From a virus (lineage: Duplodnaviria; Heunggongvirae; Uroviricota; Caudoviricetes): DNA of 20,641 bases. The notes under the pieces are model-generated. The model did not search any database and had not been told where the DNA came from. It was given only the letters and a program-made list of their open reading frames with translations. The stretch is taken from the IMG/VR virus record IMGVR_UViG_2537562190_000023; one strand, given 5' to 3'. Both the position numbers and the translations under genes were made by a program. Positions 3,292 to 20,641 of this stretch are shown here, one piece after another (within the stretch, counting starts at the first letter, position 1; each line of letters begins with the position of its first letter).

Positions 3292-3653
3292 AAATAAAGG
3301 GATAACGATGATAGTTTGAGAAAAACAGAAATAACACTTTTGTGGCAAAGCATGGTGCCGGGTGCCTCCCGGTGAATTCAGTACCAGCACCTGAATCCGC
3401 GATTATCCCATATACCTGGTTGCTGATTGCCCCTCCGCACAGGGGGATTCACCATGCAGTAGTATTTTTAATAAACAGTAAACAAAAAAATCAAGCATTA
3501 TGCAGGCTGTTTCTTTTTATCACCGGCCACAGCAATACCACAATGCCGCAGACCAGCCCCCATCCGCCAGCACCGACATGATTCTGCTGGTGAAATCCAC
3601 CATCACCACCAGAAACAGCAGGAGTGCAGCCACAGCCAGGCGCAGTTTTACCG

Positions 3654-5075: not shown

Positions 5076-5446
5076 TTTTTGACCTGCCCTTCAAGCATTA
5101 TGGGGTAAATCTTCACCCCCAGACGTCCACCAGATACTGGCTGAGCACGAACGATATTGATTTCATCAAACTGCTCATCGTCCATTAGCAACCCCGCATG
5201 CGTCAGCGCATCCAGCGGCGCTTTCAGAATATTGTCCAGGTCACGGCGGCGCTTATCCGGTGGCTCGGCAATAATCTTTATCGCCAGCCTTCCGGACAGG
5301 CTTAATTTCAGCCGCTGCTGGCGAACAATAAGCGCCACAGCCCGGCGATAACGCTCACCGGCTTTTGATACAAAATATGTGCTGCCACGACGTCGCCAGT
5401 AGGTGTTCACCGTCGGCAGGTAAAGCAAAACAAACTCTATACGCAT
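5072..5446 (-). CDS. rusA: Holliday-junction resolvase RusA
   Basis: 124 aa. Motifs RRRDLDN, LDALT.AG and GGRL, and overall similarity to E. coli RusA (YbcP) as recalled. Start ATG overlaps the upstream stop (TGATG). Confidence 0.8.
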   Translation of the reverse strand: MRIEFVLLYLPTVNTYWRRRGSTYFVSKAGERYRRAVALIVRQQRLKLSLSGRLAIKIIAEPPDKRRRDLDNILKAPLDALTHAGLLMDDEQFDEINIVRAQPVSGGRLGVKIYPIMLEGQVKK

Positions 5447-6507
5447 CAGTAACCTCTTTTACCCGAGCACGCCGGTTGCAAAGGCGTGATCAAGAAAACG
5501 AAAATTAAATCAACCTGGGAACCATGCTTTTCTTCGAACGCCAGCGGATCCGCATGAAGCTCGTTGTGATGCTCCCGACACAGCGGTAGCGTGAAAATAT
5601 CGTGGGATTTTGTTCCCATTCCGCCCTGACCATGACCAATCAGATGATGAGGATCGTCCGCTGGCTTACCACAACACGCACACGGCTGTGTCTTTACCCA
5701 GCGTGTGTATTTCTCATTTACCCAGCGGCGACGTTTAGGTCGTTTCATGAAGGATTCCGGAGACTCCGGATCAACGGCAATGCTGACCACCGTCTTTTCC
5801 TGTGGTGGGTTCTGTTGCTGGTGGGTGTGAGGCGGTAGCGCAATATTTTTTGTGCGCTGCTTCAGTATGCTGGTGGCGGTCTGCTCTCCCGGTACGATGT
5901 CGCTTTCGCGGTACAAGGAGCGGATTTTTTCCACACGTAACCCCAGAGAACGACGTAATACGGCCTCCGGTAGCGCGTCCGCCACCTGATTGCAGACCGC
6001 CCACCAGGATAATTCAGCCAGAGATAATTCACGCTCCTGCGTACCGCTTATTGCGTGACCGATGACGTCAATCATCCATGCTGACAGGTTTTGATGAGCA
6101 AGTTGCTCGAGTGATTCGGATGTCTGGTCCCGTAGCTGGTTGTCGCAGTGCCAGCACAACACCATTGCGCCGGTACCATAACGGTGAATGACAGTTTCGC
6201 TGTGGTGATAATCGCCGTGTGGCCACTGGCAGGATTTAATATGGCGCAACAGCCAGTCAGACAATGCACCAGCACCACCAGCAGCACGAATCACTCGTTC
6301 GTCGCTGAAAAATGGCAGCAATGTTTTGTCTTCCACCAGCGGCTGGCGAACGGCAGGAACGACCCCGGACGGCAGATTACGCATGCTTTTCGGTTCCGGC
6401 TCCACCAGTACCCGGGTATTGTGAAATACCTGCATGGATTCACGACCTGGCTTAAGGACCACCAGCCCGAGTTCCGGTACCAGAACAGGTCGAAGTAATA
6501 CCCGCAC
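5446..6507 (-). CDS. DUF968-type prophage protein (YdfU-like) with a C-terminal HNH-like Cys/His motif
   Basis: 353 aa. C-terminal region KRPKRRRWVNEKYTRWVKTQPCACCGKPADDPHHLIGHGQGGMGTKSHDIFTLPLCREHHNELH matches the DUF968/HNH-like pattern. Start lies 1 bp after the upstream stop. Confidence 0.6.
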   Translation of the reverse strand: MRVLLRPVLVPELGLVVLKPGRESMQVFHNTRVLVEPEPKSMRNLPSGVVPAVRQPLVEDKTLLPFFSDERVIRAAGGAGALSDWLLRHIKSCQWPHGDYHHSETVIHRYGTGAMVLCWHCDNQLRDQTSESLEQLAHQNLSAWMIDVIGHAISGTQERELSLAELSWWAVCNQVADALPEAVLRRSLGLRVEKIRSLYRESDIVPGEQTATSILKQRTKNIALPPHTHQQQNPPQEKTVVSIAVDPESPESFMKRPKRRRWVNEKYTRWVKTQPCACCGKPADDPHHLIGHGQGGMGTKSHDIFTLPLCREHHNELHADPLAFEEKHGSQVDLIFVFLITPLQPACSGKRGY

Positions 6508-7334: not shown

Positions 7335-7490
7335 TTACTCCTCAGGTTCGTAAGCTGTGAAGACAGCGACCTCCGTCTGGCCGGTTCGGATTCGTACCTC
7401 GCAGAGGTCTTTCCTCGTTACCAGTGCCGTCACTATGACGGTTAAACAGATGACGATCAGGGCGATTAACATCGCCTTTTGCTGCTTCAT
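7335..7490 (-). CDS. hok: Hok/Gef-family type I toxin, 51 aa; an in-frame upstream extension to 7547 forms a mok-like leader ORF
   Basis: MKQQKAMLIALIVICLTVIVTALVTRKDLCEVRIRTGQTEVAVFTAYEPEE is a canonical Hok/RelF-type sequence (single TM helix, conserved Cys, acidic C-terminus). The 70-codon ORF 7335-7547 starts at ATG 7547. Confidence 0.85.
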   Translation of the reverse strand: MKQQKAMLIALIVICLTVIVTALVTRKDLCEVRIRTGQTEVAVFTAYEPEE

Positions 7491-7534
7491 AGCCTGCTTC
7501 TCCTTGACCTTTCGGTCCGTAAGAGGCAATCTAT

Positions 7535-7590
7535 ATGTGACGAGCATATAGGGGCCTCACTTCGATTTATAGTCGGGTGGGGCTTTTATC
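7535..7590 (+). ncRNA. Predicted Sok-like antisense RNA overlapping the mok translation-initiation region
   Basis: Plus-strand TTGACC at 7504-7509 could serve as a -35. A possible terminator hairpin (CCUCAC/GUGGGG with one G-U pair, 7556-7582) is followed by CUUUUAUC. The region is antisense to the mok start at 7547. Boundaries are approximate. Confidence 0.3.
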
Positions 7591-7792
7591 TATCTGCCGT
7601 TGGTGTTCATGCCCGAGGCAGATAGCCTCAAGCACCCGCAGCAATTCTACTTAACTCTGCCGTTACAGCAAGCCGTTTTCGTCCGATATGGGAATTCCCA
7701 TATCGGAATGAATTCAGTTCACCTGGCGAGGCTTAGCGTACAATTTTTTCCGTTTTGTGAGCTGCCCCTACATGCCGCTGGCGCGGCATCCG

Positions 7793-8779: not shown

Positions 8780-9446
8780 CCTGTTTGGAATAGCCAGCCT
8801 TTAATGGATAACTATTTCTGACAATGCAATGAGTATAATCAAGTCCATCTTCCACTGAGAATTAGAGGCGGCATGCTTTTTCCGACTCTTGCCGGATATC
8901 CGTAATTGTCCATAATCTGCAGATTTATACCTTCAGCATGACCTGCCAGCGAAAATTTGTCCGGTGTTTCTACGGAAATAACATCAAAAGTTACACGCAC
9001 TCGCGTTACCGTGTAGACCTACTTTCCTGCACTTGCAAGATCACAGTGGTGTAACCGTAACAGGAATTTATTCTCTGGACCGGCAGTAAATCCCTGAGTG
9101 GCGTGGTTCCCATATCAATTTCCAGCCAGGCAGCCTCCATTGCCAGCGTACTGGCTGGAGCCATGACCTGCCCTTTAAATCTGGCCCGACCATCCCACCG
9201 GACGTGTTCTTCTCCCCTGAACTTAGGTACAGTCATCTCCAGTGGCACAAAAGTGTCAGCGCCATGATTTTTGACCGTTATCGCGCTACGGATATTTTGT
9301 TGACTGGTGAAAATTACCCCGCAGAATCAGGCTTATTCCCTTAACCCGGGCTTTCATCCTGACCGCCGCCTCACTACGACCAATCAGACTGCCGATGCAT
9401 TTTACCTTCATTGTTAGTATCATAATTTCAGGCCTGCACCATCCGC

Positions 9447-10193
9447 TCATTGCCCGGACTTCCGACAAATCCCGGCAACCATATCTCGGTGCTTGTTCAG
9501 CTCCCGCAGCGCGGCGCAGACTCGCTCCCACTTCTGGACATGACTTTTCGCCCGACGCAATTCGCGGTTTGCCATATGCAGCGATGGTAAAACCAGGTCA
9601 TCCGCTCGCGTTTCAGTAAACGATGGCAACGATTGCACAATATCAGCCACAGTTTCTGTTTTAATATCTTCCTGTGTTGCAGCTTCCTGTACTGGTAACG
9701 CAACACCTGCTGACTGAGGAAAGGCTTTACCATCATTTTCCGTTACCGGCACGGATTTCGGCTCTGCTGGTAACTTATCGCCCGGCATGCAGTAACGAAA
9801 TTTACCGTTCTGGTTTACACGAATCAGACGACCTTTGCTGATTGCCATTGCCAGCGTTGAAGCCACTTTGCGTGATGTTGTACCGAACAACGTAGCCAGC
9901 TCATCAGCCGTTTGTGGTCCGCGTTGTTCAACCGTCGCAGTTAAATCGCACTCCGAAATTTTAGCGACTGTTGCCGTGGTGGTTTCTTCCGACAGTTCTG
10001 CCGGCGCTGGCTGTTCCTGCTGAACGTTGTTATAAGCCACACGCCAGGTGTATACGCTTTTATCAACGAAGCCAGCCTTTCTCAGTTCCCACAGCTCGTT
10101 CAGCACTTCTTCACGACTGATATCAAGTCGCGCAGCCAGCTCTACCGACGTGGCTTTTCCCATCGCTTTCAGTGCGTCAAAAACAGTCTCCAT
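9447..10193 (-). CDS. Hypothetical prophage protein with two winged-helix-like segments, 248 aa
   Basis: ATG at 10193 with strong SD GGGAGGAAA. Two HTH-like stretches ([30 protein letters not shown] and [33 protein letters not shown]). Lies directly after the replication genes. Confidence 0.6.
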
Positions 10194-10225
10194 AAATTTC
10201 CTCCCGGTAAAAATTACTTCTCAAA

Positions 10226-10891
10226 TCAGACAAACCCAGCCGCTTTCCGGCGTTCATATTCCTGTTTCAGCAACTCAATTGGCGTTGGTCCCGCAGGACG
10301 TTTGGGTGCTGCCAGTTGTCGCCGGACAGGCGGAACACTCAGGCCGTTGCTAACATGCTTTGCCCATTTCGTCAGCTGCCGTTCTGCAAGCCGTTTTAAC
10401 TCCCCTTCGGTCATCTGGCGTTCAATCCCCTTTGAACGCATCTCGAGGCAAATGTGATACAGCACAGGCTGAGACCACGGGTACTTATCACTTCCGTCGT
10501 ATCGCCAGGACTCATTGCGCCAGCGGCGGTACTCCTCCATCACAGCATCCACCGTCAGACCAAATGGATTGGCCCCGCTTTCCGAAATCAGCGCCACAAA
10601 CTCAGCCAGGTCCGGAGGCCATGTTTCACCCGCCCGGCAGCAGTCCATGCACTGGCGGCAGACCTGCCGGATTTGCTGCTCAGTCATCGCGCCAATCTGT
10701 GCAATCCAGAGCTTCGAAGGTGCGGCCCCGTTCTTCTGGGTCCAGCGGTTCGAATAAACCTCCCCCATGAGCTCCCACAGCTTCCAGGCCGTTTCCGTCG
10801 CTGATAAATCCGTTTTCACGTTCCCACTGCTCACGTGCTGCCCGAATTTCCTGAACTGCCCGTGATGCGGTTCCACCTGGTGCTGCTGCAT
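10226..10891 (-). CDS. Replication protein P-like (DnaB helicase loader)
   Basis: Similarity to lambda P as recalled (YPW motif, ELKRLAERQL, VPPVRRQL blocks). ATG at 10891 has SD AGGGGG, but this start overlaps the 3' end of the initiator gene by about 210 nt. An alternative coupled start at 10687 (ATGACTGA) would give 153 aa. Confidence 0.6.
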   Translation of the reverse strand: MQQHQVEPHHGQFRKFGQHVSSGNVKTDLSATETAWKLWELMGEVYSNRWTQKNGAAPSKLWIAQIGAMTEQQIRQVCRQCMDCCRAGETWPPDLAEFVALISESGANPFGLTVDAVMEEYRRWRNESWRYDGSDKYPWSQPVLYHICLEMRSKGIERQMTEGELKRLAERQLTKWAKHVSNGLSVPPVRRQLAAPKRPAGPTPIELLKQEYERRKAAGFV

Positions 10892-11720
10892 GGTTTACCC
10901 CCTTGCTGACTGGTTTAACCTGCGCCCTGACGTGATTTACGTGACGGGCGAATTTCTGCTCCCACTGAACCTGCGTAAACACTTTCCCCTCCGCTGCCCA
11001 GTAGTCCCGGAATGCGGCAAGTTCAGCAGGTGTGAATTCTGTCTCCGGCAAAGCCATCCCCCACAACGCAGCCCGTCGTCGAAAATCCCGTGACGGATAC
11101 CAGTTATCGGTCATCGGAAATTTTCCGATGGGTTCGCTCAGGCCATCCAGGAATACAGGGGGGACTGCCTGTAACGACAAAACTTCCTGCTCACTGGTCG
11201 GAGCACTCTCGCGTGCGTTATGTGTGGGGTTTAAATCTTTGGGTTCCTTTGGGTTCCGTGATCCGTTTTTGGGTGTCTTTGATGGAAAATTTGGGTGTCT
11301 TTGGTTATTTTCCATGCAGCAAAGAGTTCCGTTTTTGGGGCTGTTTTGTGCTGAAACATAACCGTTTTCGGTTCTGTTTTTATTAACAGTACCAATTTTA
11401 CCTACCTTTAAAGACTCCCGTTTTTGGGTGTATTCATCCTCGGTAACACTTTCTTCAACACCGATAAGTCGGTACACCACAATTTGTTTTGTCCGGCCTT
11501 TTCTCTCACCGGTATCAACAATTAACCCAATCTCCATCAGGTGTCGTAAGCTGTCCTGCACAGTCTTTTTGTTCAGTTCCGTTACTTCTGCCAGTGCAGA
11601 TACAGACGGGTATGCACACAAATCGGCACCGCACATATCAGCAAGCCAGGTCAATACTGACTTACTGGATGAACTGCCGGTTTTCACCTTTTTAGCCCAT
11701 CGTAGCGCATCGATACTCAT
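10680..11720 (-). CDS. Replication initiation protein (lambda O-like): N-terminal HTH, low-complexity linker encoded over the iterons
   Basis: ATG at 11720 (MSIDALRWAKK...). N-terminal HTH typical of phage initiators. The linker NKNRTENGYVSAQNSPKNG... is encoded by the iteron DNA, as in lambda O. The six-frame track's earlier start at 11795 is TTG. Confidence 0.6.
   Translation of the reverse strand: MSIDALRWAKKVKTGSSSSKSVLTWLADMCGADLCAYPSVSALAEVTELNKKTVQDSLRHLMEIGLIVDTGERKGRTKQIVVYRLIGVEESVTEDEYTQKRESLKVGKIGTVNKNRTENGYVSAQNSPKNGTLCCMENNQRHPNFPSKTPKNGSRNPKEPKDLNPTHNARESAPTSEQEVLSLQAVPPVFLDGLSEPIGKFPMTDNWYPSRDFRRRAALWGMALPETEFTPAELAAFRDYWAAEGKVFTQVQWEQKFARHVNHVRAQVKPVSKGVNHAAAPGGTASRAVQEIRAAREQWERENGFISDGNGLEAVGAHGGGLFEPLDPEERGRTFEALDCTDWRDD
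11237..11435. repeat. Iteron array (candidate origin of replication) inside the initiator gene
   Basis: Six or more copies of a TTTGGG core (consensus about CCGTTTTTGGGTGTCTTTG) at 11238, 11248, 11268, 11290, 11334 and 11423, spaced at roughly 10, 20, 22, 44 and 89 bp (near helical-turn multiples). Confidence 0.55.
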
Positions 11721-12243
11721 ACGAACCCCAGACAGATATTTGTTTATCTGCAAAGTAATGTTGGTATTGCTGACGATACGCACGCTTGAAAGCAATAGCT
11801 TTTTCTATAAGTTCGTCAGTCTCACGTTCCACAACAGCTGGATCCGCAAAAAGTAGCCCTGACTCCACCACATCGCCATATTCTTTGTTTAACCCGGCGA
11901 TCATGTACGTAATGCTTTTTCCGTCAGTAATTTCACGATACAACCTGAAATCACTGATCCGGATAGCCGCCATAATTGCCGGAATCAGCGCCGTGAATTT
12001 TTCCCGCTTATCCCTGGTGTCGATAGATTTCCAGCGTTCGAATATCTTCACCCGGTTAACGCCCAGCGCCCGTTGATCAACCGCGCCATCATCAAACGTG
12101 ACGCGTTGAACATCGATGTTCGGGCGTTCTTTCAGAGCCCAGAATGCTTCCGTGATTAATATCGTCGCCTGCTCCTGTGTCATTCCTGGTCGGCATACCC
12201 AGGCATCCAGAGCCTCACAAACCTGTTCAGGGGTGATTTTCAT
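11692..12243 (-). CDS. YdaT-like protein at the cII position, 183 aa (assignment tentative)
   Basis: ATG at 12243 overlaps the 3' end of the Cro-like gene. Position downstream of the Cro/YdaS-like gene matches the cI-YdaS-YdaT modules of Rac and CP-933P. Sequence identity to YdaT was not verified. Confidence 0.45.
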   Translation of the reverse strand: MKITPEQVCEALDAWVCRPGMTQEQATILITEAFWALKERPNIDVQRVTFDDGAVDQRALGVNRVKIFERWKSIDTRDKREKFTALIPAIMAAIRISDFRLYREITDGKSITYMIAGLNKEYGDVVESGLLFADPAVVERETDELIEKAIAFKRAYRQQYQHYFADKQISVWGSYEYRCATMG

Positions 12244-12454
12244 TGTTCAACCGCCCCGCCCGCTTTGCCTTACGATATTCGTCATAAACTTTGGGGTCGT
12301 ACTGAAGTTCCCCGCCGGATGCCTCTTGCAGGCGCATCGCGCGACCTTCAGGAACCAGTTCCCCCCATGCAGCAATGCTTGCCAACCTAACTCCTGCGGC
12401 ATTGGCAAGCTTTGTTTTGCTGCCAAAAAACGCTATAGCATCAATTTTCAACAT
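12227..12454 (-). CDS. Cro-like small HTH regulator (YdaS family-like), 75 aa
   Basis: Divergent from the repressor. SD AGGAG 6 nt upstream of the ATG. HTH pattern KTKLANAAGVRLASIAAW. Confidence 0.6.
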   Translation of the reverse strand: MLKIDAIAFFGSKTKLANAAGVRLASIAAWGELVPEGRAMRLQEASGGELQYDPKVYDEYRKAKRAGRLNNENHP

Positions 12455-12530
12455 ATCGAGCTCCTTAGATTTTCCTAAGGAAACTAGATCGTAGAGAAAC
12501 CTAAGTCAAGAAAAATTAGAATTCCCTAAT
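12455..12530. promoter_or_regulatory. OR-like divergent promoter/operator region between the Cro-like gene and the repressor
   Basis: Inverted repeat CCTTAG-N6-CTAAGG at 12463-12480. The 15-bp element GTAGAGAAACCTAAG at 12491-12505 overlaps a minus-strand -35 TTGACT. Plus-strand -10 TAGAAT at 12517-12522 places the start site at the repressor ATG (leaderless, no SD). Confidence 0.5.
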
Positions 12531-12938
12531 ATGAAAAACGAAACCTTCGGTGCTCGCCTCTTACATAGGCGTAAAAAATTAAAACTGTCTCAGGCCGCAT
12601 TAGGTAAGCTGGTCAAAGTGGCTCACGTAACAATTTCTCAATGGGAAAGAGATGAAACACAGCCGGCGGGGAAAAGATTATTCGCACTGAGCCAAGCGCT
12701 TCAGTGCTCACCGACTTGGCTTCTTTTTGGGGATGAAGATAAACAACCAGGCGAACCGATCCCGAATAATCAGCCAGCCATTCTGACAGAAGATCAAAAA
12801 GAGTTACTTCAACTGTTCGACGCACTGCCTGACTCAGAGCAAAAGGCCCTGTTGTCAGAGATGCGTGCTCGAGTTGAAAATTTCAACAAACTTTTTGAAG
12901 AACTACTTAAAGCTCGCAAAAGAAGCGCAAACAAATAA
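12531..12938 (+). CDS. Prophage repressor, XRE-family HTH, 135 aa, no S24 peptidase domain (cI functional analogue)
   Basis: N-terminal HTH (LKLSQAALGKLVKVAHVTISQWERDETQP). Divergent from the Cro-like gene. Flanked on both sides by the same operator motif. Too short to carry a LexA-like autocleavage domain. Confidence 0.75.
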   Translation: MKNETFGARLLHRRKKLKLSQAALGKLVKVAHVTISQWERDETQPAGKRLFALSQALQCSPTWLLFGDEDKQPGEPIPNNQPAILTEDQKELLQLFDALPDSEQKALLSEMRARVENFNKLFEELLKARKRSANK

Positions 12939-12989
12939 CCCCTTTTTTCTCCACACCCTGTAATAAAAAGCACAAACTTTCAAACACTT

Positions 12990-13062
12990 GTGTTTTTTAC
13001 ACCAAAAAACTTAGGTTTTTCTACATAAGAATCTTGACCATATGCCTTAGGTTATTCTAAAT
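12990..13062 (+). promoter_or_regulatory. OL/pL-like operator-promoter downstream of the repressor gene
   Basis: CTTAGGTTTTTCTAC at 13010-13024 is a near-identical copy of the OR element (reverse complement of 12491-12505). A second CCTTAGG at 13045-13051. -35 TTGACC at 13034-13039 with a weak -10 17 bp downstream. Confidence 0.4.
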
Positions 13063-13139
13063 TTCACTCATCAAGACACCGCACGGTGTTCTCAGCAAAC
13101 AGTTCCGCTACTCCGGCGTTAAGGGGAAATGAGGTCAGC

Positions 13140-13295
13140 ATGGATACTATCGATCTTGGCAGCAACGAATCTCTGGTGTACGGCGTGTTCCCAAACCAGG
13201 ACGGCACGTTCACCGCGATGACGTATACCAAAAGCAAAACGTTTAAAACCGAAAATGGTGCCCGTCGCTGGCTGGAAAGAAACTCAGGTGAGTGA
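13140..13295 (+). CDS. Hypothetical early protein, 51 aa
   Basis: ATG at 13140 with GAGG 5 nt upstream. First ORF after the pL-like promoter. The six-frame ORF begins earlier at a GTG. Confidence 0.4.
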   Translation: MDTIDLGSNESLVYGVFPNQDGTFTAMTYTKSKTFKTENGARRWLERNSGE

Positions 13296-13299
13296 TATG

Positions 13300-13407
13300 G
13301 ATTTCGACACAATCATGGAAAAGGCTTACGAAGAATACTTCGAAGACCTTGCCGAAGGCGAAGAGGCTCTCAGCTTCAGTGAGTTTAAACAGGCGCTTTC
13401 CAGTTAG
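13300..13407 (+). CDS. Hypothetical small acidic protein, 35 aa
   Basis: ATG 5 nt after the previous stop. MDFDTIMEKAYEEYFEDLAEGEEALSFSEFKQALSS. Below the ORF-track length cutoff. Confidence 0.3.
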   Translation, partial: DFDTIMEKAYEEYFEDLAEGEEALSFSEFKQALSS

Positions 13408-13454
13408 GCAAAATCTAACGGCTGATAAGCGAAACAGCACCGCGAGGAATCAGT

Positions 13455-13694
13455 ATGCATAAACGAGAACCCGTCATCATCGCGCCAGACTATACCGATG
13501 ATGAACTTTATGAGTGGATGCGCCAGAAAATTAATGCAGCGCAGGATCTGAAATGGGCCAATGAAGCCAGGGCTAAGCAGGCTGAAAAATCTGTCCGCTC
13601 TGGAGCAGGATATCACCAATTTGGAAAAAGCAGCGGCATTAAGCATTGCCAGAATGATTACATACCCGCGTTAATAGCTAACCAACGAGGATAA
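13455..13694 (+). CDS. Hypothetical early protein, 79 aa as read; possible frameshift near 13585
   Basis: Strong SD GAGGAA 5 nt upstream of the ATG. The N-terminal 45 residues look protein-like. After an A5 run the +1 frame encodes a more helical-looking tail (LSALEQDITNLEKAAALSIARMITYPR). Confidence 0.5.
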   Translation: MHKREPVIIAPDYTDDELYEWMRQKINAAQDLKWANEARAKQAEKSVRSGAGYHQFGKSSGIKHCQNDYIPALIANQRG

Positions 13695-13724
13695 GGTTGG
13701 TAATTAAGGAGTTCTCTACGGGTC

Positions 13725-13762
13725 AGGTGGAGTGCGTGCGCCGGACACGGGTGAGCATCCGG
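13725..13762 (+). terminator. Candidate plus-strand intrinsic terminator closing the first early-gene block
   Basis: Bulged hairpin CGTGCGCCGGA / TCCGGCACG (13725-13756) followed by TTCTTT. Confidence 0.4.
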
Positions 13763-13809
13763 CACGTTCTTTAAAAATCTGGATAGTCCCAACTTATTTA
13801 AACGGTTAA

Positions 13810-14154
13810 TTATCTTGAGTTCATCCAGAACTTATTATTGCAAGCGGGGCAAAAAGTACGAAAATGAGCATCAAAGCGCATTATTTCCATTGGTTGCAGT
13901 ACAGATATTACCTTTTTTCCAAAACATTGTGGGCAAAGATGCACTGTTATCTCGGTATCGCCTATAAATTGCTTCTTGGAATACACAAGAGTTCCAGAAT
14001 CAAGCTTGTTAAGTTTGTAACCTTCCGCCTGTTGCTGAAAGTCTTCTATCTCTGCAATTTTTGCTTTGAGAGATGCGGCTTCTTCCTGATAAGAGCGCAC
14101 CATCTCAATGAGCGATACGCATTCAAACTGAACAGACGTAAGTTTTGAAAGCAT
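13810..14154 (-). CDS. Antisense-oriented zinc-ribbon protein, 114 aa (coiled-coil N-terminus, CPQC-x22-CPAC)
   Basis: Protein-like composition with a predicted coiled coil (EEAASLKAKIAEIEDFQQQAEGY) and a C4 zinc ribbon. Lies on the strand opposite to the surrounding early operon, in an AT-rich stretch. No obvious SD before the ATG at 14154. Confidence 0.55.
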   Translation of the reverse strand: MLSKLTSVQFECVSLIEMVRSYQEEAASLKAKIAEIEDFQQQAEGYKLNKLDSGTLVYSKKQFIGDTEITVHLCPQCFGKKVISVLQPMEIMRFDAHFRTFCPACNNKFWMNSR

Positions 14155-14280
14155 ATCGCTGACAGCGGAATTTATCTCAGTTTGAGTTTTGCATTCAGAA
14201 TACCCTTTGCCATTACCGCAGTTTCTTTGATTGCCGACATTGCTGCTGAGAACTCAACTATCACGTTACATACTCTTCTC

Positions 14281-14324
14281 GTTGTTGGGGATATCCAGAT
14301 TATACAAATTTCTTGTTGTTGGGG
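14281..14324 (-). promoter_or_regulatory. Candidate promoter for the zinc-ribbon gene, flanked by a 10-bp direct repeat
   Basis: Minus-strand perfect -10 TATAAT (plus 14299-14304). Exact direct repeats GTTGTTGGGG at 14281-14290 and 14315-14324, one on each side of the -10. Confidence 0.35.
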
Positions 14325-14806
14325 AATAACAGGAACCACCTCGCCTGACGTGGTTAAAAGCAGGCACACAACGCGAAAGCGTACGGCGAGGTAGCTGGTT
14401 CATAGATAGCCTGTCGTTAAATTTTCGTCGACCGTGCGCTTCCGGTTGTGGCAGTCCGCGAAATGGCGCGGCGGTAAGTATGGCTGGGGTTTCCTCCATT
14501 GCTCCAGAAAATGCACCGGGTTGTCAGGTTGACCATACGCTTAAGTGACAACCCCGCTACAACGCCCTCTGTTATCAATTTTCTGGTGACATTTGGCGGT
14601 ATCAGTTTTACTCCGTGACTGCTCTGCCGCCCTTTTTAAAGTGAATTTTGTGATGCGGTGAATGCGGCTAAGCGCACGCGGAACAGTTAAAACCAAAAAC
14701 AGTGTTATGGGTGGATTCTCTGTATCCGGCGTTAATTGTTAACTGGTTAACGTCACCTGGAGGCACCAGGCACTGCATCACAAAATTCATTGTTGAGGAC
14801 GCGATA

Positions 14807-14995
14807 ATGGAAACGTTATTACCAAACGTTAATACGTCTGAAGGTTGTTTTGATATTGGAGTTCTGCTCAGTAACCGGGAGTTTACTGAAGATGCCATTA
14901 AGATGAGAAAATATGAACCTTATCTTCTTAATGATAATTCCATACTTTCCAGAATTGCCCTTCTTGAACTTGGTATTATCGGAGAACAGCAGTGA
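14807..14995 (+). CDS. Hypothetical protein, 62 aa
   Basis: ATG at 14807 with SD GAGGA 7 nt upstream. The six-frame ORF starts at an upstream GTG. Confidence 0.4.
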   Translation: METLLPNVNTSEGCFDIGVLLSNREFTEDAIKMRKYEPYLLNDNSILSRIALLELGIIGEQQ

Positions 14996-15180
14996 CTTCA
15001 GCGTTTGCACTGATAATGACCGTTTTTCTTATAACGGGTGAGCCGCAGAATGTGATTACCGGAATTTATTACAGTAAGTCATCCTGCATTCAGGTAAGGG
15101 ACGAACAAAAAATCCCCGGTGAATGCCTCCCGTTAAAAAAAGTATCGCTGTACCTGAATAACGAAACACCGGCTGGATAA
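14992..15180 (+). CDS. Hypothetical small protein with hydrophobic N-terminus, 62 aa
   Basis: GTG start overlapping the previous stop (GTGA), GGAG 7 nt upstream. N-terminal hydrophobic segment ALIMTVFLITG. Confidence 0.35.
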   Translation: MTSAFALIMTVFLITGEPQNVITGIYYSKSSCIQVRDEQKIPGECLPLKKVSLYLNNETPAG

Positions 15181-15272
15181 CCCGCCAGCCATATTAACGC
15201 CATACCAACGGATTAAAAATGCCAGCAATGGCAGGAATTTGTTCATCCTTAAAATGGTTATGAGGTTTATCA

Positions 15273-16874
15273 ATGAACGCTGATAAAGAAGAAATTGCAC
15301 TATATTACGAAGCCAAAAATGACAAAGTCAGAAAACGCCTTGGGATTAAAGGTGGTTTTTACTGGCGCACAGCAAAAAAATTATCGGTTGCAATATCACG
15401 TGGTGTTGCTGCAATGGACGATGCCGGATTTGACGAAGAGGATTTTAAAAAACCCATCCGCGTCCATTTACCCGTTGTGAATGACCTTCCACCGGAAGGT
15501 GTGTTTGATACTGAATTCTGCAACCGATACGAAAAAGGCGGAGAAGATGGTATCACAATGATACTTATCGCGCCCTCTGTTCCGGACAAACCAGCCAGTA
15601 CTGACAATACCAACGTCAACGGCGAAGACATGGCTAAGATTGAGGAGAATATGCTTCTTCCGGTTTCAGGTCAGATTCTGCCTGTTCGCTGGCTGGCGCA
15701 ACACAACAGCGAAAAACCGCTCACGCACGTTTCACTGGACAAACTGCGCGCATTACATAACGCACAGGATGAAAAACTTCCCGCCGTTACCGCGCTGGCC
15801 ATCTCAAATAAAGCAGTGCAACTCGAACCGCTGGAGCTTCGGGATTTGTACAAACTGGTGCGAGACACTGACAAAGTTTTCCCCGCCCCCGTAAATTCGG
15901 ACCTGGGACTGATGACCTCTTTTATCGAAGCATACCTGGGCGCTGACTACACCGATCGCGGTCTGCTTACAAAAGAGTGGATGAAAGGAAATCGTGTTTC
16001 ACGCATCAGCCGCACGCCATCCGGCGCTAACGCTGGCGGCGGCATTCTTACCGATCGCGGCGAAGGTTTTGTCCACGATGATGCGTCAGTGGCGCGTGAC
16101 GTAGCCACTGGCGTACTGGCCCGTTCAATGGACGTGGATATTTATAACCTTCATCCCGCGCACGCTAAACGCATTGAGGAAATTATCGCTGAAAATAAAC
16201 CGCCATTTTCTGTGTTTTTCAGCAAATTCATCACCATGCCGGGCCACAAGGATTACTCCCGCGCCATCGTGGTTGCGTCCGTGAAAGAAGCACCAATTGG
16301 TATAGAGGCTACTCCCCACCGTGTCACCGAATACCTGAATAAGGTGCTGACTGAAACCGATCATGCCACCCCTGATCCGGAAATCGTGGATATTGCCTGT
16401 GGTCGCTCCTCTGCCCCGATGCCGCAGCGTGTAACAAAAGAAGGAAAACAGGATGATGAAGAAAAACCGCAGCCATCTGGCGCAATGGCAGATGAACAGG
16501 CAACGACTGAAGCAGTGGAACCGGATACAACTGAACATAATCAGGACACGCAGTCGATGGATGCTCAGCCACAGATAAATTCTGTTGATGCGAAATATCA
16601 GAAACTGCGTGCAGAACTCCATGAAGCCAAGAAAAACATTCCACCCAAAAATCCTGTCGATGCAGATAAATTACTGGCTGCTTCTCGAGGAGAATTTGTT
16701 GAAGGGATTAGCGACCCGAATGATCCAAAATGGGTGAAGGGGATCCAGAGTCGCGATGATGATGACCAGAATCAGGATAAAGCGGAACAAAACAGCCCAA
16801 ATGCGTTACAAAACGAGCCAAAAACAAAACAACCTGAACCGCCCCGGGTTTCCTGGAGAGTGTTTTATCTGTGA
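15273..16874 (+). pseudogene. RecE-like protein, N-terminal fragment truncated by IS629 insertion (last 13 codons and stop are IS-derived)
   Basis: ATG at 15273 with SD GAGG. Long stretches resemble the N-terminal region of Rac RecE as recalled (for example [80 protein letters not shown]). The frame enters the IS at 16835 and stops at 16872-16874. Confidence 0.8.
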
Positions 16875-16876
16875 AC

Positions 16877-17764
16877 TCAGGCTGCCAGATCATCGTTTCC
16901 GATGGAAGCATAATAAGCTTTTTCTGCTTCTGCCGGGGGAGTATGGCCCAGCCTTTCCAGCAATCGTCGATTGTTATACCAGTCCACCCACGTGAGTGTG
17001 GCCAGTTCCACTTCTGCACGGTTTTTCCAGCTCTTACGGTGTATTACCTCCGCTTTGTAAAGACCATTGATGCTCTCCGCCATCGCGTTGTCATACGAGT
17101 CGCCAGTACTCCCTGTTGATGCCAGTAATCCGGCTTCCTTAAGCCGCTGCGTGTAGGCCAGCGATACATACTGAGAACCTTTATCACTGTGATGGATTGT
17201 GCCGGACGGCCGACGGGCCCACAACGCCTGCTCCAGTGCATCCAGCACGAATGTTGTTTCCATGGATGATGAGACCTGCCATCCCACGATGTATCCGGCG
17301 AACACATCAATGATGAACGCCACATAAACGAAGCCCTGCCATGTGCTTACCCAGGTAAAATCAGCCACCCACAACTGGTCTGGACGTTCTGCCACGAACT
17401 GACGGTTTACGCGGTCGCATGCGGCAACGGCTTTCCGGCTGACGGTAGTGCGGACCTTTTTACCCCGGAGAACACCGGCAAGTCCCATAACCGCCATGAG
17501 ACGTGCCACAGTGCATCTGGCCACTCTGATACCTTCCCGTAACAACTGACGCCAGACTTTACGCACACCGTATACCTTGTGATTTTCATCGTATACGCGC
17601 TGTATCTCTTTCTTCAGCCAGTCATCGCGCTGCGCACGGGCACTGCGTTTATCCGGATAATGTCGCTGTTGCTGACAGTGGTAATACGTTGACGGGGCAA
17701 TATGCAGTTCGCTGCATACCGGTCCGACCCCGTACTGCTCACGCAGCTTATCCAGCAGTGGCAT
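16877..17764 (-). CDS. IS629 transposase OrfB (DDE catalytic domain)
   Basis: 295 aa beginning [29 protein letters not shown] and ending ASIGNDDLAA, matching IS629 OrfB as recalled. ATG overlaps the orfA stop (TAATG). Confidence 0.9.
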   Translation of the reverse strand: MPLLDKLREQYGVGPVCSELHIAPSTYYHCQQQRHYPDKRSARAQRDDWLKKEIQRVYDENHKVYGVRKVWRQLLREGIRVARCTVARLMAVMGLAGVLRGKKVRTTVSRKAVAACDRVNRQFVAERPDQLWVADFTWVSTWQGFVYVAFIIDVFAGYIVGWQVSSSMETTFVLDALEQALWARRPSGTIHHSDKGSQYVSLAYTQRLKEAGLLASTGSTGDSYDNAMAESINGLYKAEVIHRKSWKNRAEVELATLTWVDWYNNRRLLERLGHTPPAEAEKAYYASIGNDDLAA

Positions 17765-18090
17765 TATTTTTTCCAGAGGCGGTCGAACTCCGCCTTCGCA
17801 AAATAAGCGGAAGCCTGGCGAAGGATATCGTTACTGCGGCGCAGTTCACGATTTTCACGTTCCAGCTCTTTCAGACGCTGACGTTCAGCGGTGGTGAGTC
17901 CACCATCACCACTCCCGGTATCCCGCTCATGCTGGCGAACCCAGACACGCAGAGTCTCCGGCGTACAGCCAATCTTTGGGGCAATGGAACAAATTGCCGC
18001 CCACTGTGAGTCATATTCATCCTGACTTTCCAGAACCATACGAATCGCCCGCTGACGGACTTCGGGGGAAAAACGAGTATTTTTAGTCAT
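17764..18090 (-). CDS. IS629 transposase OrfA (HTH / leucine-zipper part)
   Basis: 108 aa [59 protein letters not shown]..., matching IS629 OrfA as recalled. An A6 run sits at the orfA/orfB junction, where IS3-family -1 frameshifting occurs. Confidence 0.9.
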
Positions 18091-18157
18091 CCTGTTTACC
18101 TCTTTCTCAGGGAGTTTAGTCTCCAGGATTTCCGGGGCGGTTCAACCTGAACCAGTA

Positions 18158-19003
18158 GTGCAACAAGAACCAGAAAAAGTTTGCACCACATGTGGTCAGA
18201 CCGATGGCGGCAACTGCCCTGATTGTGGAGCGGTAATGGGTGACGCAACCTACCAAGAGACATTCAACGAAGAAAGCCAGGATGAAGCCCGGAAAAAAAA
18301 TCCGGAGGAAATGGAAAATGCCGTGCTCCCGAATAAGCAATGCACCGAAGGCGATCAACATGCCAATGGCAATAATGAAACAGGCGAGACAGCAAATCCC
18401 TTAATTACGGTGAACGGTCATCACGTTATCACATCCACCAGCAGGACGTGTGACCATCTAATGATCGACCTTAAAACCATGGGAAAAAATCCTGATGCCC
18501 CGATTATCTCAATAGGTGCAATATTTTTCGATCCGCAAACCGGAGATATGGGACCGGAATTTAGTAAGACTATCGATCTGGAAACTGCTGGCGGAGTCAT
18601 TGATCGGGACACCATTAAACGGTGGCTTAAGCAATCACGCGAAGCGCAATCTGCCATTATGACCGATGAAATCCCGTTAGATGATGCACTGTTACAATTG
18701 CGGGAATTTATCGACGAAAACTCCGGTGAATTTTTTGTTCAGGTCTGGGGAAATGGAGCCAACTTCGACAACACGATTTTGCGCCGTTCATACGAACGGC
18801 AGGGGATCCCCTGCCCGTGGCGTTACTACAACGATCGCGATGTACGCACAATCGTTGAGCTGGGGAAAGCCATAGACTTCGATGTCAGAACTGCTATCCC
18901 ATTCGAAGGTGAGCGCCATAATGCACTTGATGACGCCCGTTATCAGGCAAAATACGTTTCAGCTATCTGGAAAAAACTGATCCCGAGTCAGGCTGATTTT
19001 TAA
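18158..19003 (+). CDS. C-terminal fragment of the IS-split RecE-like gene: DnaQ-like 3'-5' exonuclease domain
   Basis: In frame with 15273-16834 once the IS and one ACC copy are removed (…[17 protein letters not shown]…). Exonuclease motifs [13 protein letters not shown] and [13 protein letters not shown] are present. First motif reads MIDLKTMG. The ORF begins with GTG at 18158; an internal ATG at 18461 precedes the domain. Confidence 0.7.
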
Positions 19004-19074
19004 TGTTCAACCGTCGTCGGTTGCAATTGGTATTCTGCAACCGGCGTTCATCTGATGTAAGAGATAAAGAATCG

Positions 19075-19326
19075 ATGAGCGAAGTAATCATGATCGTCTC
19101 TCCTGGCAAATGGGTATCCGAAGAGCAGTTAATTGCACTTAAAGGAATCAAAAAGGGAACGCTAAAAAAAGCCAGGGAAAAATCGTTTATGGAAGGAAGG
19201 GAATATAAGCATGTCGCTCATGACGGTATGCCATGGGATAACAGTCCATGCTTTTACAACCTGGAAGAAATTGATCGCTGGATTGAGCGCCAGGCATCTG
19301 CAAGACCAAGACGTCATCTTGCTTGA
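19075..19326 (+). CDS. xis: Excisionase-like protein (DUF1233 / putative excisionase family)
   Basis: ATG at 19075 (MSEVIMIVSPGKWVSEEQLIALKGIKKGTLKKAREKSFMEGREYKHVAHDGMPWDNSPCFYNLEEIDRWIERQ). Lies immediately upstream of int. An in-frame ATG at 19003 overlapping the exonuclease stop is an alternative start. Confidence 0.55.
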   Translation: MSEVIMIVSPGKWVSEEQLIALKGIKKGTLKKAREKSFMEGREYKHVAHDGMPWDNSPCFYNLEEIDRWIERQASARPRRHLA

Positions 19327-19345
19327 CTAAAAGCAACACGAACCA

Positions 19346-20641
19346 ATGAGAGAAGCTGAAATGAAATATCCGACAGGCGTGGAAAACCATGGAGGGAAAT
19401 TACGTATCTGGTTTGTTTATAAAGGTGTAAGAGTCCGGGAAAATCTTGGGGTTCCTGACACAGCAAAAAACAGGCGCATTGCAGGTGAGCTACGCGCCTC
19501 TGTTTGTTACGCAATAAAAACTGGCGCTTTCGACTATGCAAAACAGTTTCCCGCCTCACACAATCTGGAAAAATTTGGTGAGGCCCGACAAGATTTAACC
19601 ATAAAAGAACTGGCTGAAAAATTTCTGGCACTGAAAGAAACTGAAGTCGCAAAAACGTCACTCAACACGTACCGTGCCGTCATCAAAAATATTCTGAGCA
19701 TAATCGGTGAAAAAAATCTTGCATCATCGATTAATAAAGAAAAATTGCTGGCGGTACGTAAAGAGTTACTGACTGGATACCAGATCCCCAAAAGTAACTA
19801 TATTGTTACACAACCAGGGAGATCGGCTGTTACCGTAAATAATTACATGACAAATCTTTACGCCGTGTTCCAGTTTGGTGTTGATAACGGTTATCTGGCA
19901 AACAATCCATTTAAGGGGATCTCACCATTAAAGGAGTCGAGAACCATCCCGGATCCACTTTCGCGGGAGGAGTTTATCCGCCTTATTGACGCGTGCAGAA
20001 ATCAGCAAGCCAAAAATTTATGGTGTGTTTCCGTTTATACTGGGATTCGCCCTGGTGAACTGTGTGCGCTTGGATGGGAAGATATAGATCTGAAAAATGG
20101 AACAATGATAATCAGAAGAAATCTGGCAAAAGACCGTTTTACAGTACCAAAAACACAGGCGGGAACCAATCGTGTGATTCACCTTATTAATCCCGCAATC
20201 GACGCTCTCCGGAGTCAGATGGCACTAACGAGACTGAGCAAAGAGCATATCATCGATGTTCACCTCAGAGAATTCGGCAGAACAGAGAAACAAAAATGTA
20301 CCTTTGTTTTTCAACCTGAAGTGTCAGCGAAAGTAAAAAATTATGGTGACCATTTTACCGTTGACTCAATAAGGCAGATGTGGGACGCAGCGGTAAAGCG
20401 TGCCGGAATCCGCCATCGCAAATCGTATCAGTCGAGACACACTTATGCCTGCTGGTCGTTAACAGCAGGAGCTAACCCGGCATTCATTGCAAACCAGATG
20501 GGCCATGCAGATGCGCAAATGGTGTTTCAGGTGTACGGGAAATGGATGTCAGAAAATAATAATGCGCAGGTAACGCTGTTAAATACACAGTTAAGCGAGT
20601 TTGCCCCAACCATGCCCCATAACGAAGCGATGAAAAGTTAA
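19346..20641 (+). CDS. int: Phage integrase, tyrosine recombinase family
   Basis: 431-aa ORF (or 426 aa from the ATG at 19361). C-terminal catalytic region with R...H..R...Y signature (RNLAKDRF, SRHTYACWSL, MVFQVYGKWM). The stop codon is the last triplet of the window. Confidence 0.85.
   Translation: MREAEMKYPTGVENHGGKLRIWFVYKGVRVRENLGVPDTAKNRRIAGELRASVCYAIKTGAFDYAKQFPASHNLEKFGEARQDLTIKELAEKFLALKETEVAKTSLNTYRAVIKNILSIIGEKNLASSINKEKLLAVRKELLTGYQIPKSNYIVTQPGRSAVTVNNYMTNLYAVFQFGVDNGYLANNPFKGISPLKESRTIPDPLSREEFIRLIDACRNQQAKNLWCVSVYTGIRPGELCALGWEDIDLKNGTMIIRRNLAKDRFTVPKTQAGTNRVIHLINPAIDALRSQMALTRLSKEHIIDVHLREFGRTEKQKCTFVFQPEVSAKVKNYGDHFTVDSIRQMWDAAVKRAGIRHRKSYQSRHTYACWSLTAGANPAFIANQMGHADAQMVFQVYGKWMSENNNAQVTLLNTQLSEFAPTMPHNEAMKS

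Follow-up and report, generated by a model that had tools for sequence, protein, structure and literature searches.

Insertion polymorphisms of the insertion sequence (IS) IS629 in the prophages of enterohaemorrhagic Escherichia coli (EHEC) are well documented and are in use as markers. IS629 belongs to the IS3 family of elements. Its copies are flanked by target duplications of 3–4 bp, 62% of them are located in prophages, and they occupy sites without a strict target sequence, while the sub-types of the element diverge from each other by 4–5% (Rump et al. 2011, PMC3271280). For the paradigm of the IS3 family, IS911, an outward-directed -35 element was described in the right inverted repeat (IRR) and an inward-directed -10 element in the left inverted repeat (IRL) (PMC9330008). 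Here we analysed a stretch of 20,641 nucleotides, the IMG/VR virus record IMGVR_UViG_2537562190_000023 (hereafter the window), which is a Qin-like prophage of a Shiga-toxin-type E. coli strain. In the window, a complete IS629 interrupts a gene with a RecE-like N-terminal region and a C-terminal exonuclease domain, which lies upstream of the excisionase gene xis and the integrase gene int.

We are rather confident that the locus is explained by the insertion of IS629 into codon 521-522 of this gene, as a truncating and probably polar mutation, and that this event was independent of an insertion into the same site in the O103:H2 strain PV16-126. According to the mechanism that we propose, an intact IS629 would have entered codon 521-522 of an 805-aa accessory gene by the copy-out/paste-in pathway of the IS3 family and would have duplicated its 3-bp target ACC. 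The host gene is part of an early-left operon, and the lambdoid, Qin-like prophage to which it belongs is integrated beside rspB. Its N-terminal 523 residues would still be made, carrying a 10-residue tail encoded by the IS, and the exonuclease domain would lose its start and its translational coupling. The expected result is a simple null or truncating mutation, for which polarity appears likelier than an activation of the genes further downstream. It is a routine case in which an accessory gene of a prophage decays through IS629, here at a site that has been reused.

Empty site, gene fragments and the inserted element

Deletion of the IS together with one copy of ACC from the window yields a 2418-nt open reading frame (ORF) of 805 aa without an internal stop. 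An 800-bp reconstruction of the empty site was found with 100% identity in 15 complete E. coli genomes, which include O103:H2 12009 as well as O45:H2, O121 and O103 isolates. These genomes, UTAK-6 and 14 more, possess a single ACC at the insertion point, and the uninterrupted gene is present in them as one coding sequence, WP_000990639.1, annotated as 'exonuclease' or '3'-5' exonuclease'. A protein identical to these 805 aa is known from at least 1000 contigs. In the BLAST search with the empty site, half-matches of interrupted alleles are masked by paralogous prophage alleles within the same genomes. The original prediction, made from the letters of the window, had postulated an IS3-family element of 1310 bp with 3-bp ACC duplications, the removal of which, along with one duplication, would restore a continuous frame. 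Both statements were borne out, well beyond what chance would give, by the uninterrupted alleles and by the agreement of coordinates, ORFs and repeats; the interval 16832-18147 comprises the IS plus both duplications. The same prediction called the insertion 'in-frame', which is correct for the restored gene and incorrect for the insertion itself, because the IS and one duplication add 1313 nt (2 mod 3) and translation ends at the TGA at 16872-16874 without read-through.

The N-terminal fragment forms a 533-aa ORF, composed of 523 native residues resembling the N-terminal part of RecE and of 10 IS-encoded residues that precede the TGA. It had correctly been described as ending 13 codons into the IS, since the last three native codons overlap the end of the element with their meaning unchanged and are followed by the 10 foreign ones. 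At the other side of the element, the frame of the exonuclease domain stays open and precedes xis and int, as expected from the prediction. Here, the longest ORF with a canonical start codon begins with the GTG at 18158 and extends to 19003 (281 aa), with the DEDDh exonuclease domain encoded at about 18455-18970. This GTG is not preceded by a Shine-Dalgarno sequence; the ATG at 18236 (M551) has the sequence GGAG 5 nt upstream. The exonuclease frame continues openly for 105 nt back into the IS, following a TGA at 18041-18043, and neither ATG, GTG nor TTG occurs in this frame within the 105-nt stretch.

The terminal inverted repeats of the element are imperfect, reading TGAACCGCCCCGG(GTT/AAA)TCCTGGAGA with the termini TGAACC...GGTTCA; the two repeats agree at each of the first 13 nt and at 22 of the first 25 positions. 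The transposase reached 311 bits with the NCBIfam model NF033516 (transpos_IS3), the cutoff of which is 160, and an A-rich slippery run was found at the overlap of orfA and orfB. With its ORFs, its frameshift signal and its two inverted repeats all intact, the element is plausibly active in transposition. Over all 1310 bp, it shares 98.5% identity with a copy from phage BP-4795 (AJ556162.1) that carries the annotation IS629 OrfA/OrfB, and a near-full copy of IS629 is carried by 168 phage records. Other copies from O103:H2 strains are 0-8 nt apart from it. The identity to O157-type copies, which were labelled IS1203 by PGAP, amounts to 95.8% and lies inside the divergence between IS629 sub-types (PMC3271280).

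The exact 533-aa truncated product was found on one contig, AEZT02000031.1 from assembly GCA_000215225.2 of E. coli 93.0624. This contig is identical to positions 9273-20641 of the window and contains unique sequence on both sides of the IS. No junction identical to the left junction of the window was detected among 5,426 complete E. coli genomes. The insertion in the orientation of the window is recent and strain-specific for E. coli 93.0624. Its description as a datable event holds only weakly, given that this orientation was seen in one draft assembly only and that IS629 can be excised by IEE (PMC9943667). In the sister strain UTAK-14, the single IS629 of the region (locus L001, 16901-18210) is located in a hypothetical gene between ydfC and dicB and is flanked by the duplication CAG, while the exonuclease gene is intact. 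The total length of the UTAK-14 region equals that of the window by coincidence.

The interrupted gene and its nuclease domain

Residues 1-608 of the 805-aa protein match positions 1-603 of the 877 positions of NF007259, the equivalog model of RecE, with 1021.9 bits and hence below its cutoff of 1269. The RecE-like N-terminal region was recognized also by PF06630 (E = 2e-24). The nuclease part of RecE, model positions 604-877 of NF007259, has no match in the 805-aa protein. Instead, residues 624-795 cover positions 2-177 of the 177-position profile PF16473, the Rv2179c-like DEDDh 3'-5' exonuclease domain, with E = 7.7e-63, and the FD and H-x4-D motifs of this domain are present. When the C-terminal 281 aa were compared to the PDB, the only matches were the chains of 8KEL and 8KEN, deposited as 'Exodeoxyribonuclease', and no RecE chain appeared at E <= 0.01. 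Judged by these profiles, the resemblance of the gene to RecE is confined to the non-catalytic N-terminal part of about 600 residues, and its nuclease is of the predicted DEDDh 3'-5' type. The name 'RecE-like' is thus appropriate for residues 1-608 and not for the C-terminus, and the label 'RecE / exodeoxyribonuclease VIII' is misleading for this gene family because its nuclease domain is DEDDh. RecT, Bet or Erf were not annotated in the near-identical loci, which differ from the window by 2-7 positions outside the IS. The original prediction that the insertion may affect recombination is therefore unfounded as far as recombination of the RecET type is concerned.

The insertion point at codon 521-522 falls into an acidic low-complexity linker. 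A Cys4 motif (CxxC...CxxC, C533-C547) and the nuclease domain are encoded just downstream of it.

A peculiarity of the nuclease domain concerns motif I, where the window allele has a lysine, K630, in the place of the DEDDh glutamate. The motif-I glutamate of DEDD nucleases coordinates metal ions. Among the 120 top homologues, 70 read IDLKT like the window, and 44 of the remaining 50 read IDLET or IDIET, while the motif search gave no match in 6. Outside the motif, three of the homologues with IDLET or IDIET are separated from the allele in the window by just 1, 2 and 10 differences. The PDB relative 8KEL has IDFET in motif I, and the window allele reads D-L-K instead of the catalytic D-x-E. 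Because of this replacement, the exonuclease was probably impaired or inactive already before the arrival of the IS, and the functional cost of the insertion was probably small. The O103-type allele is widespread, with at least 1000 contigs carrying it, and its product may be an exonuclease that is catalytically dead and yet has been kept at full length.

Reuse of the target site and expected effect on expression

In the O103:H2 strain PV16-126, IS629 occupies the identical site with the identical ACC duplication in the opposite orientation (NZ_AP038987.1, 1935965-1937274; locus L003, 21331-22640). This genome is a hybrid assembly of Oxford Nanopore Technologies and Illumina reads (PMC12831630). 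The two halves of the gene were annotated there by PGAP as pseudogenes, 'RecE family exodeoxyribonuclease' and '3'-5' exonuclease', and the truncated product of the PV16-126 type, 536 aa with a 13-residue tail, is recorded on 12 contigs. In addition, a 284-aa partial product of contigs beginning at window position 18147 (CTGAACCAGTAG...) is indexed in 108 collection blocks; two such contigs were read and both begin at this position. Contigs with this start fit draft assemblies that break at an IS in the site, in either orientation.

The IS of the window and the copy at the site in PV16-126 differ at 5 positions, located near the IRR. The prophage backbones of four strains contain 10 variable positions; none of them is common only to the window and PV16-126, and one informative single-nucleotide polymorphism (SNP) groups the window with an empty-site strain. 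These comparisons suggest that the two insertions are most likely independent events, and on this basis CA-ACC-TGAACC (AAACAACCTGAACCAGTAG) is a reused IS629 target.

The host hexamer TGAACC adjoining the duplication creates a 9-bp direct repeat, ACCTGAACC, and, together with the preceding CA, the arrangement CA-ACC-TG. Each junction reads GGTTCA-ACC-TGAACC and hence resembles the abutted ends of an IS circle. The target choice of IS629-type elements was evaluated using 62 distinct insertion sites from 80 IMG/VR loci (L012-L091), 39 of them with a duplication. Mimicry of the inverted repeat tip was rejected as a general rule for IS629: at none of the 39 sites did the sequence beside the duplication match TGAACC at 5 or more of the 6 positions (mean 1.85/6 versus 1.5 expected). 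There was a weak palindromic preference for CA-N3-TG, with an excess of G at position +2 (19 of 35 sites, p = 2.4e-4) and of C at position -2 (16 of 35, p = 0.0095), and the CA-ACC-TG of the window (16830-16834 and 18148-18149) fits this pattern. A preference of this strength agrees with the published lack of a strict IS629 target sequence (PMC3271280). The reused site and the weak CA-N3-TG preference could be helpful for a dedicated study of target choice by IS629.

Further IS629-type insertions were found in homologues of the interrupted gene. In O157-type strains such as M7638 (locus L005, 3430-4739), the element is flanked by the duplication CCA and lies about 95 nt downstream of the site in the window; in FSIS11705876 (L006, 3824-5132), it lies inside the nuclease domain with the duplication ACG; and in one IMG/VR contig (L021, ~1520-2930), it is found near residue 380 of a 64%-identical homologue with the duplication CCG. 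The gene family combining a RecE N-terminus with a DEDDh domain is one that has been hit repeatedly by independent IS629-type insertions.

The two opposite orientations at one site could also go back to a single ancestral insertion in the PV16-126 orientation that was later inverted in 93.0624, either by recombination between the 13-bp repeats or by excision and re-insertion. The identical phosphodiester and ACC duplication for both orientations, the nearly identical prophage backbones and the much higher frequency of the opposite orientation (12 contigs versus 1), which could be the ancestral one, are in accordance with this scenario; moreover, the excision of IS629 promoted by IEE is known in this lineage and IEE occurs in O103:H2 (PMC9943667, PMC9330008). 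The 5 differences between the two IS copies are harder to reconcile with it, as are the absence of a SNP exclusive to the window and PV16-126 and the one SNP shared with an empty-site strain. We found no report of an inversion via 13-bp repeats for IS3-family elements, and independent reuse is the simpler assumption in view of at least three further independent IS629 insertions in homologous genes. Inversion of the element at its site is accordingly considered improbable. A related view, that CA-ACC-TGAACC is a true IS629 hotspot which mimics the circle junction, or else that the element was inverted in place, we regard as unlikely too; a hotspot of this kind would explain the use of one phosphodiester at least two times and in both orientations, and either possibility, if true, would provide a natural, sequence-defined case of inverted-repeat-mimic targeting or of in-situ inversion by an IS3-family element in pathogenic E. 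coli. Finally, the orientation or placement of the IS might be wrong in the draft contig AEZT02000031.1, the true state being the configuration of PV16-126. This orientation comes from a single draft assembly, draft assemblers often place a consensus copy of a repeat, and the IS of the window resembles a mosaic of two PV16-126 variants. However, sequence specific to the IRR starts 14 nt inside the left junction, and sequence specific to the IRL lies at the same distance of 14 nt from the right one, so that the orientation is fixed by every junction-spanning read of more than about 30 nt; both junctions are consistent, and the contig spans the IS with unique sequence on both sides. We consequently give very little credence to an assembly artefact and prefer two independent insertions into a reused site.

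The suggestion that outward-reading promoters of the IS could drive the exonuclease fragment together with xis and int, and alter prophage excision, was not supported. It can draw on the outward -35 elements or complete outward promoters of some IS3-family elements (PMC9330008), on the open frame extending 105 nt into the IS and on the ATG at 18236 with its GGAG. On the other hand, the IS is antisense to the host gene and its IRL abuts the exonuclease fragment, so that any outward hexamer, which in IS911 sits in the IRR (PMC9330008), would point away from the exonuclease gene, xis and int; this argument from orientation is based on the IS911 paradigm and not on data for IS629. By eye, no convincing junction promoter of the IS911 type was seen in the IS629 ends. 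A promoter scan of the + strand returned no promoter-like site in 16500-18600, nor in 15897-20641, and a relaxed scan for sigma-70-like sequences (at least 8 of 12 matches) found none directed rightwards in 17800-18260. Moreover, the exonuclease domain that would be expressed carries K630. IS-driven expression of the exonuclease gene, xis and int is therefore unsupported and appears highly improbable. A polar block, with lower read-through into the exonuclease fragment, xis and int, is more likely than activation; as the IS is oriented against the operon and shows no outward promoter on that side, polarity would be the likeliest regulatory effect. After the insertion, the operon promoter would be separated from xis and int by 1.27 kb of IS RNA that is antisense and untranslated. 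Situated between the early-left promoter and these genes, the IS could lower the excision of this prophage, which bears the adhesin gene paa.

Several points weigh against our interpretation. Polarity and loss of function were deduced from the sequence, and the single substitution E630K is no proof of inactivity. Promoters that are weak or non-canonical can escape a simple scan. The window is derived from a draft assembly in which the interior of the IS, and thus the 5 differences from the PV16-126 copy, could represent a consensus of collapsed copies. The backbones differ by few SNPs, hence the phylogenetic case for independence is weak and only suggestive. In its significance, the insertion is of little importance beyond strain typing. 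The gene hit is an uncharacterised accessory exonuclease gene of catalytically compromised appearance; K630 and the repeated use of one site in either orientation are small curiosities.

Prophage context and comparison with known systems

The gene order in this part of the prophage is dicA-like repressor, ydfA, ydfC, DicF, dicB, DUF1482, interrupted exonuclease gene, xis, int and rspB. Marked by the small RNAs DicF and STnc100, the sok RNA, dicB, ydfA, ydfC and an integrase at the rspB side, the prophage is Qin-like according to its gene and RNA content. According to the annotation of near-identical loci, it also contains paa and several pseudogenes (TerB-like, fimbrial and ydfC). At about 5496-5500, the window has a run of four A (A4), where UTAK-14, UTAK-6 and PV16-126 have A5, a difference that shifts the frame of the DUF968 gene (ORF 5446..6507) in its last codons; the A4 run may be a homopolymer error of the draft assembly. 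The features of the insertion and its surroundings are compiled in Table 1.

Table 1. Coordinates of the IS629 insertion, the interrupted gene and selected prophage features in the window
Feature	Position	Strand	Evidence or remarks
Complete IS629 (IS3 family), 1310 bp	16835-18144	-	Transposase antisense to host gene
Target-site duplication ACC, left copy	16832..16834		Direct reading; single ACC at empty site
Target-site duplication ACC, right copy	18145..18147		Direct reading
IRR (downstream of orfB), facing the N-terminal gene fragment	16835..16859	-	Inverted-repeat alignment and direction of orfA/orfB
IRL (upstream of orfA), facing the exonuclease fragment	18120..18144	-	
Intact orfA (108 aa), encoding the DNA-binding HTH part of the transposase	17764..18090	-	HTH_Tnp_1 (PF01527)
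Intact orfB (295 aa), encoding the catalytic DDE (rve) part of the transposase	16877..17764	-	PF00665 (rve) and PF13276 (HTH_21)
ALIL pseudoknot, signal for the programmed -1 frameshift where orfA and orfB overlap (GGAAAAAATAATG)	17693..17809	-	Rfam RF01497, 120.3 bits
Host hexamer TGAACC at a distance of 3 bp from the IS, same sequence as the outermost 6 nt of its inverted repeats	18148..18153	+	
N-terminal gene fragment, 533-aa ORF	15273..16874	+	Matches to PF06630 and NF007259; product EIH66796.1
C-terminal gene fragment, residues 522-805	18148..19003	+	Product EIH66767.1
Codon AAA (K630) instead of the DEDDh motif-I Glu	18473..18475	+	Comparison with homologues and PDB
Excisionase gene xis (DUF1233 family), intact	19075..19326	+	Profile match and annotation of identical loci
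Tyrosine integrase gene, 431 aa, intact	19346..20641	+	Prophage end adjoins rspB
DicF small RNA	14581-14632	+	Rfam
sok antitoxin RNA, adjoining hokD	7488-7637	-	Rfam
STnc100 small RNA	3317-3483	-	Rfam

The Qin prophage of E. coli K-12 shares with the window the rspB site and the order dicA-ydfA-ydfC-dicF-dicB-ydfD-X-int, including an IS-disrupted gene between ydfD and int. In K-12, the disrupting element is IS2 and intQ is destroyed as well, whereas it is IS629 in the window and int is intact. The IS2-truncated gene in the same slot of K-12, ydfE (locus L007, 5079-7709), was considered as an orthologue of the interrupted gene and rejected (BLASTP E = 1.1). Because ydfE is unrelated to the interrupted gene in sequence, the slot that separates ydfD from int is, as far as sequence comparison tells, filled by different genes in different Qin-like prophages.

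RecE of the Rac prophage has the same N-terminal region as the interrupted gene and occupies a similar early-left lambdoid slot upstream of xis and int. The two differ in that RecE possesses a 5'-3' nuclease C-terminus, while the gene in the window has the DEDDh 3'-5' domain and no adjacent recT. With the Rv2179c-like DEDDh exonucleases, the gene has the full-length domain in common, to which it adds a RecE-like N-terminus of 600 residues and the D-L-K version of motif I. The insertion in PV16-126 agrees with that in the window in gene, insertion point and ACC duplication and deviates from it in its opposite orientation and the 5 differences within the IS. The element itself corresponds to IS629 with its isoforms IS1203 and IS3411, as known from EHEC O157:H7, O26 and O103 and from Stx phages, in length, repeats, orfA/orfB organisation, ALIL pseudoknot, 3-bp duplication and prophage setting; the sole difference from the catalogued element is the 95.8% identity to O157-type copies. 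The locus is thus an ordinary IS629 insertion polymorphism in an accessory gene of an EHEC-type prophage, of a kind that is already catalogued and with both halves of the gene already deposited.

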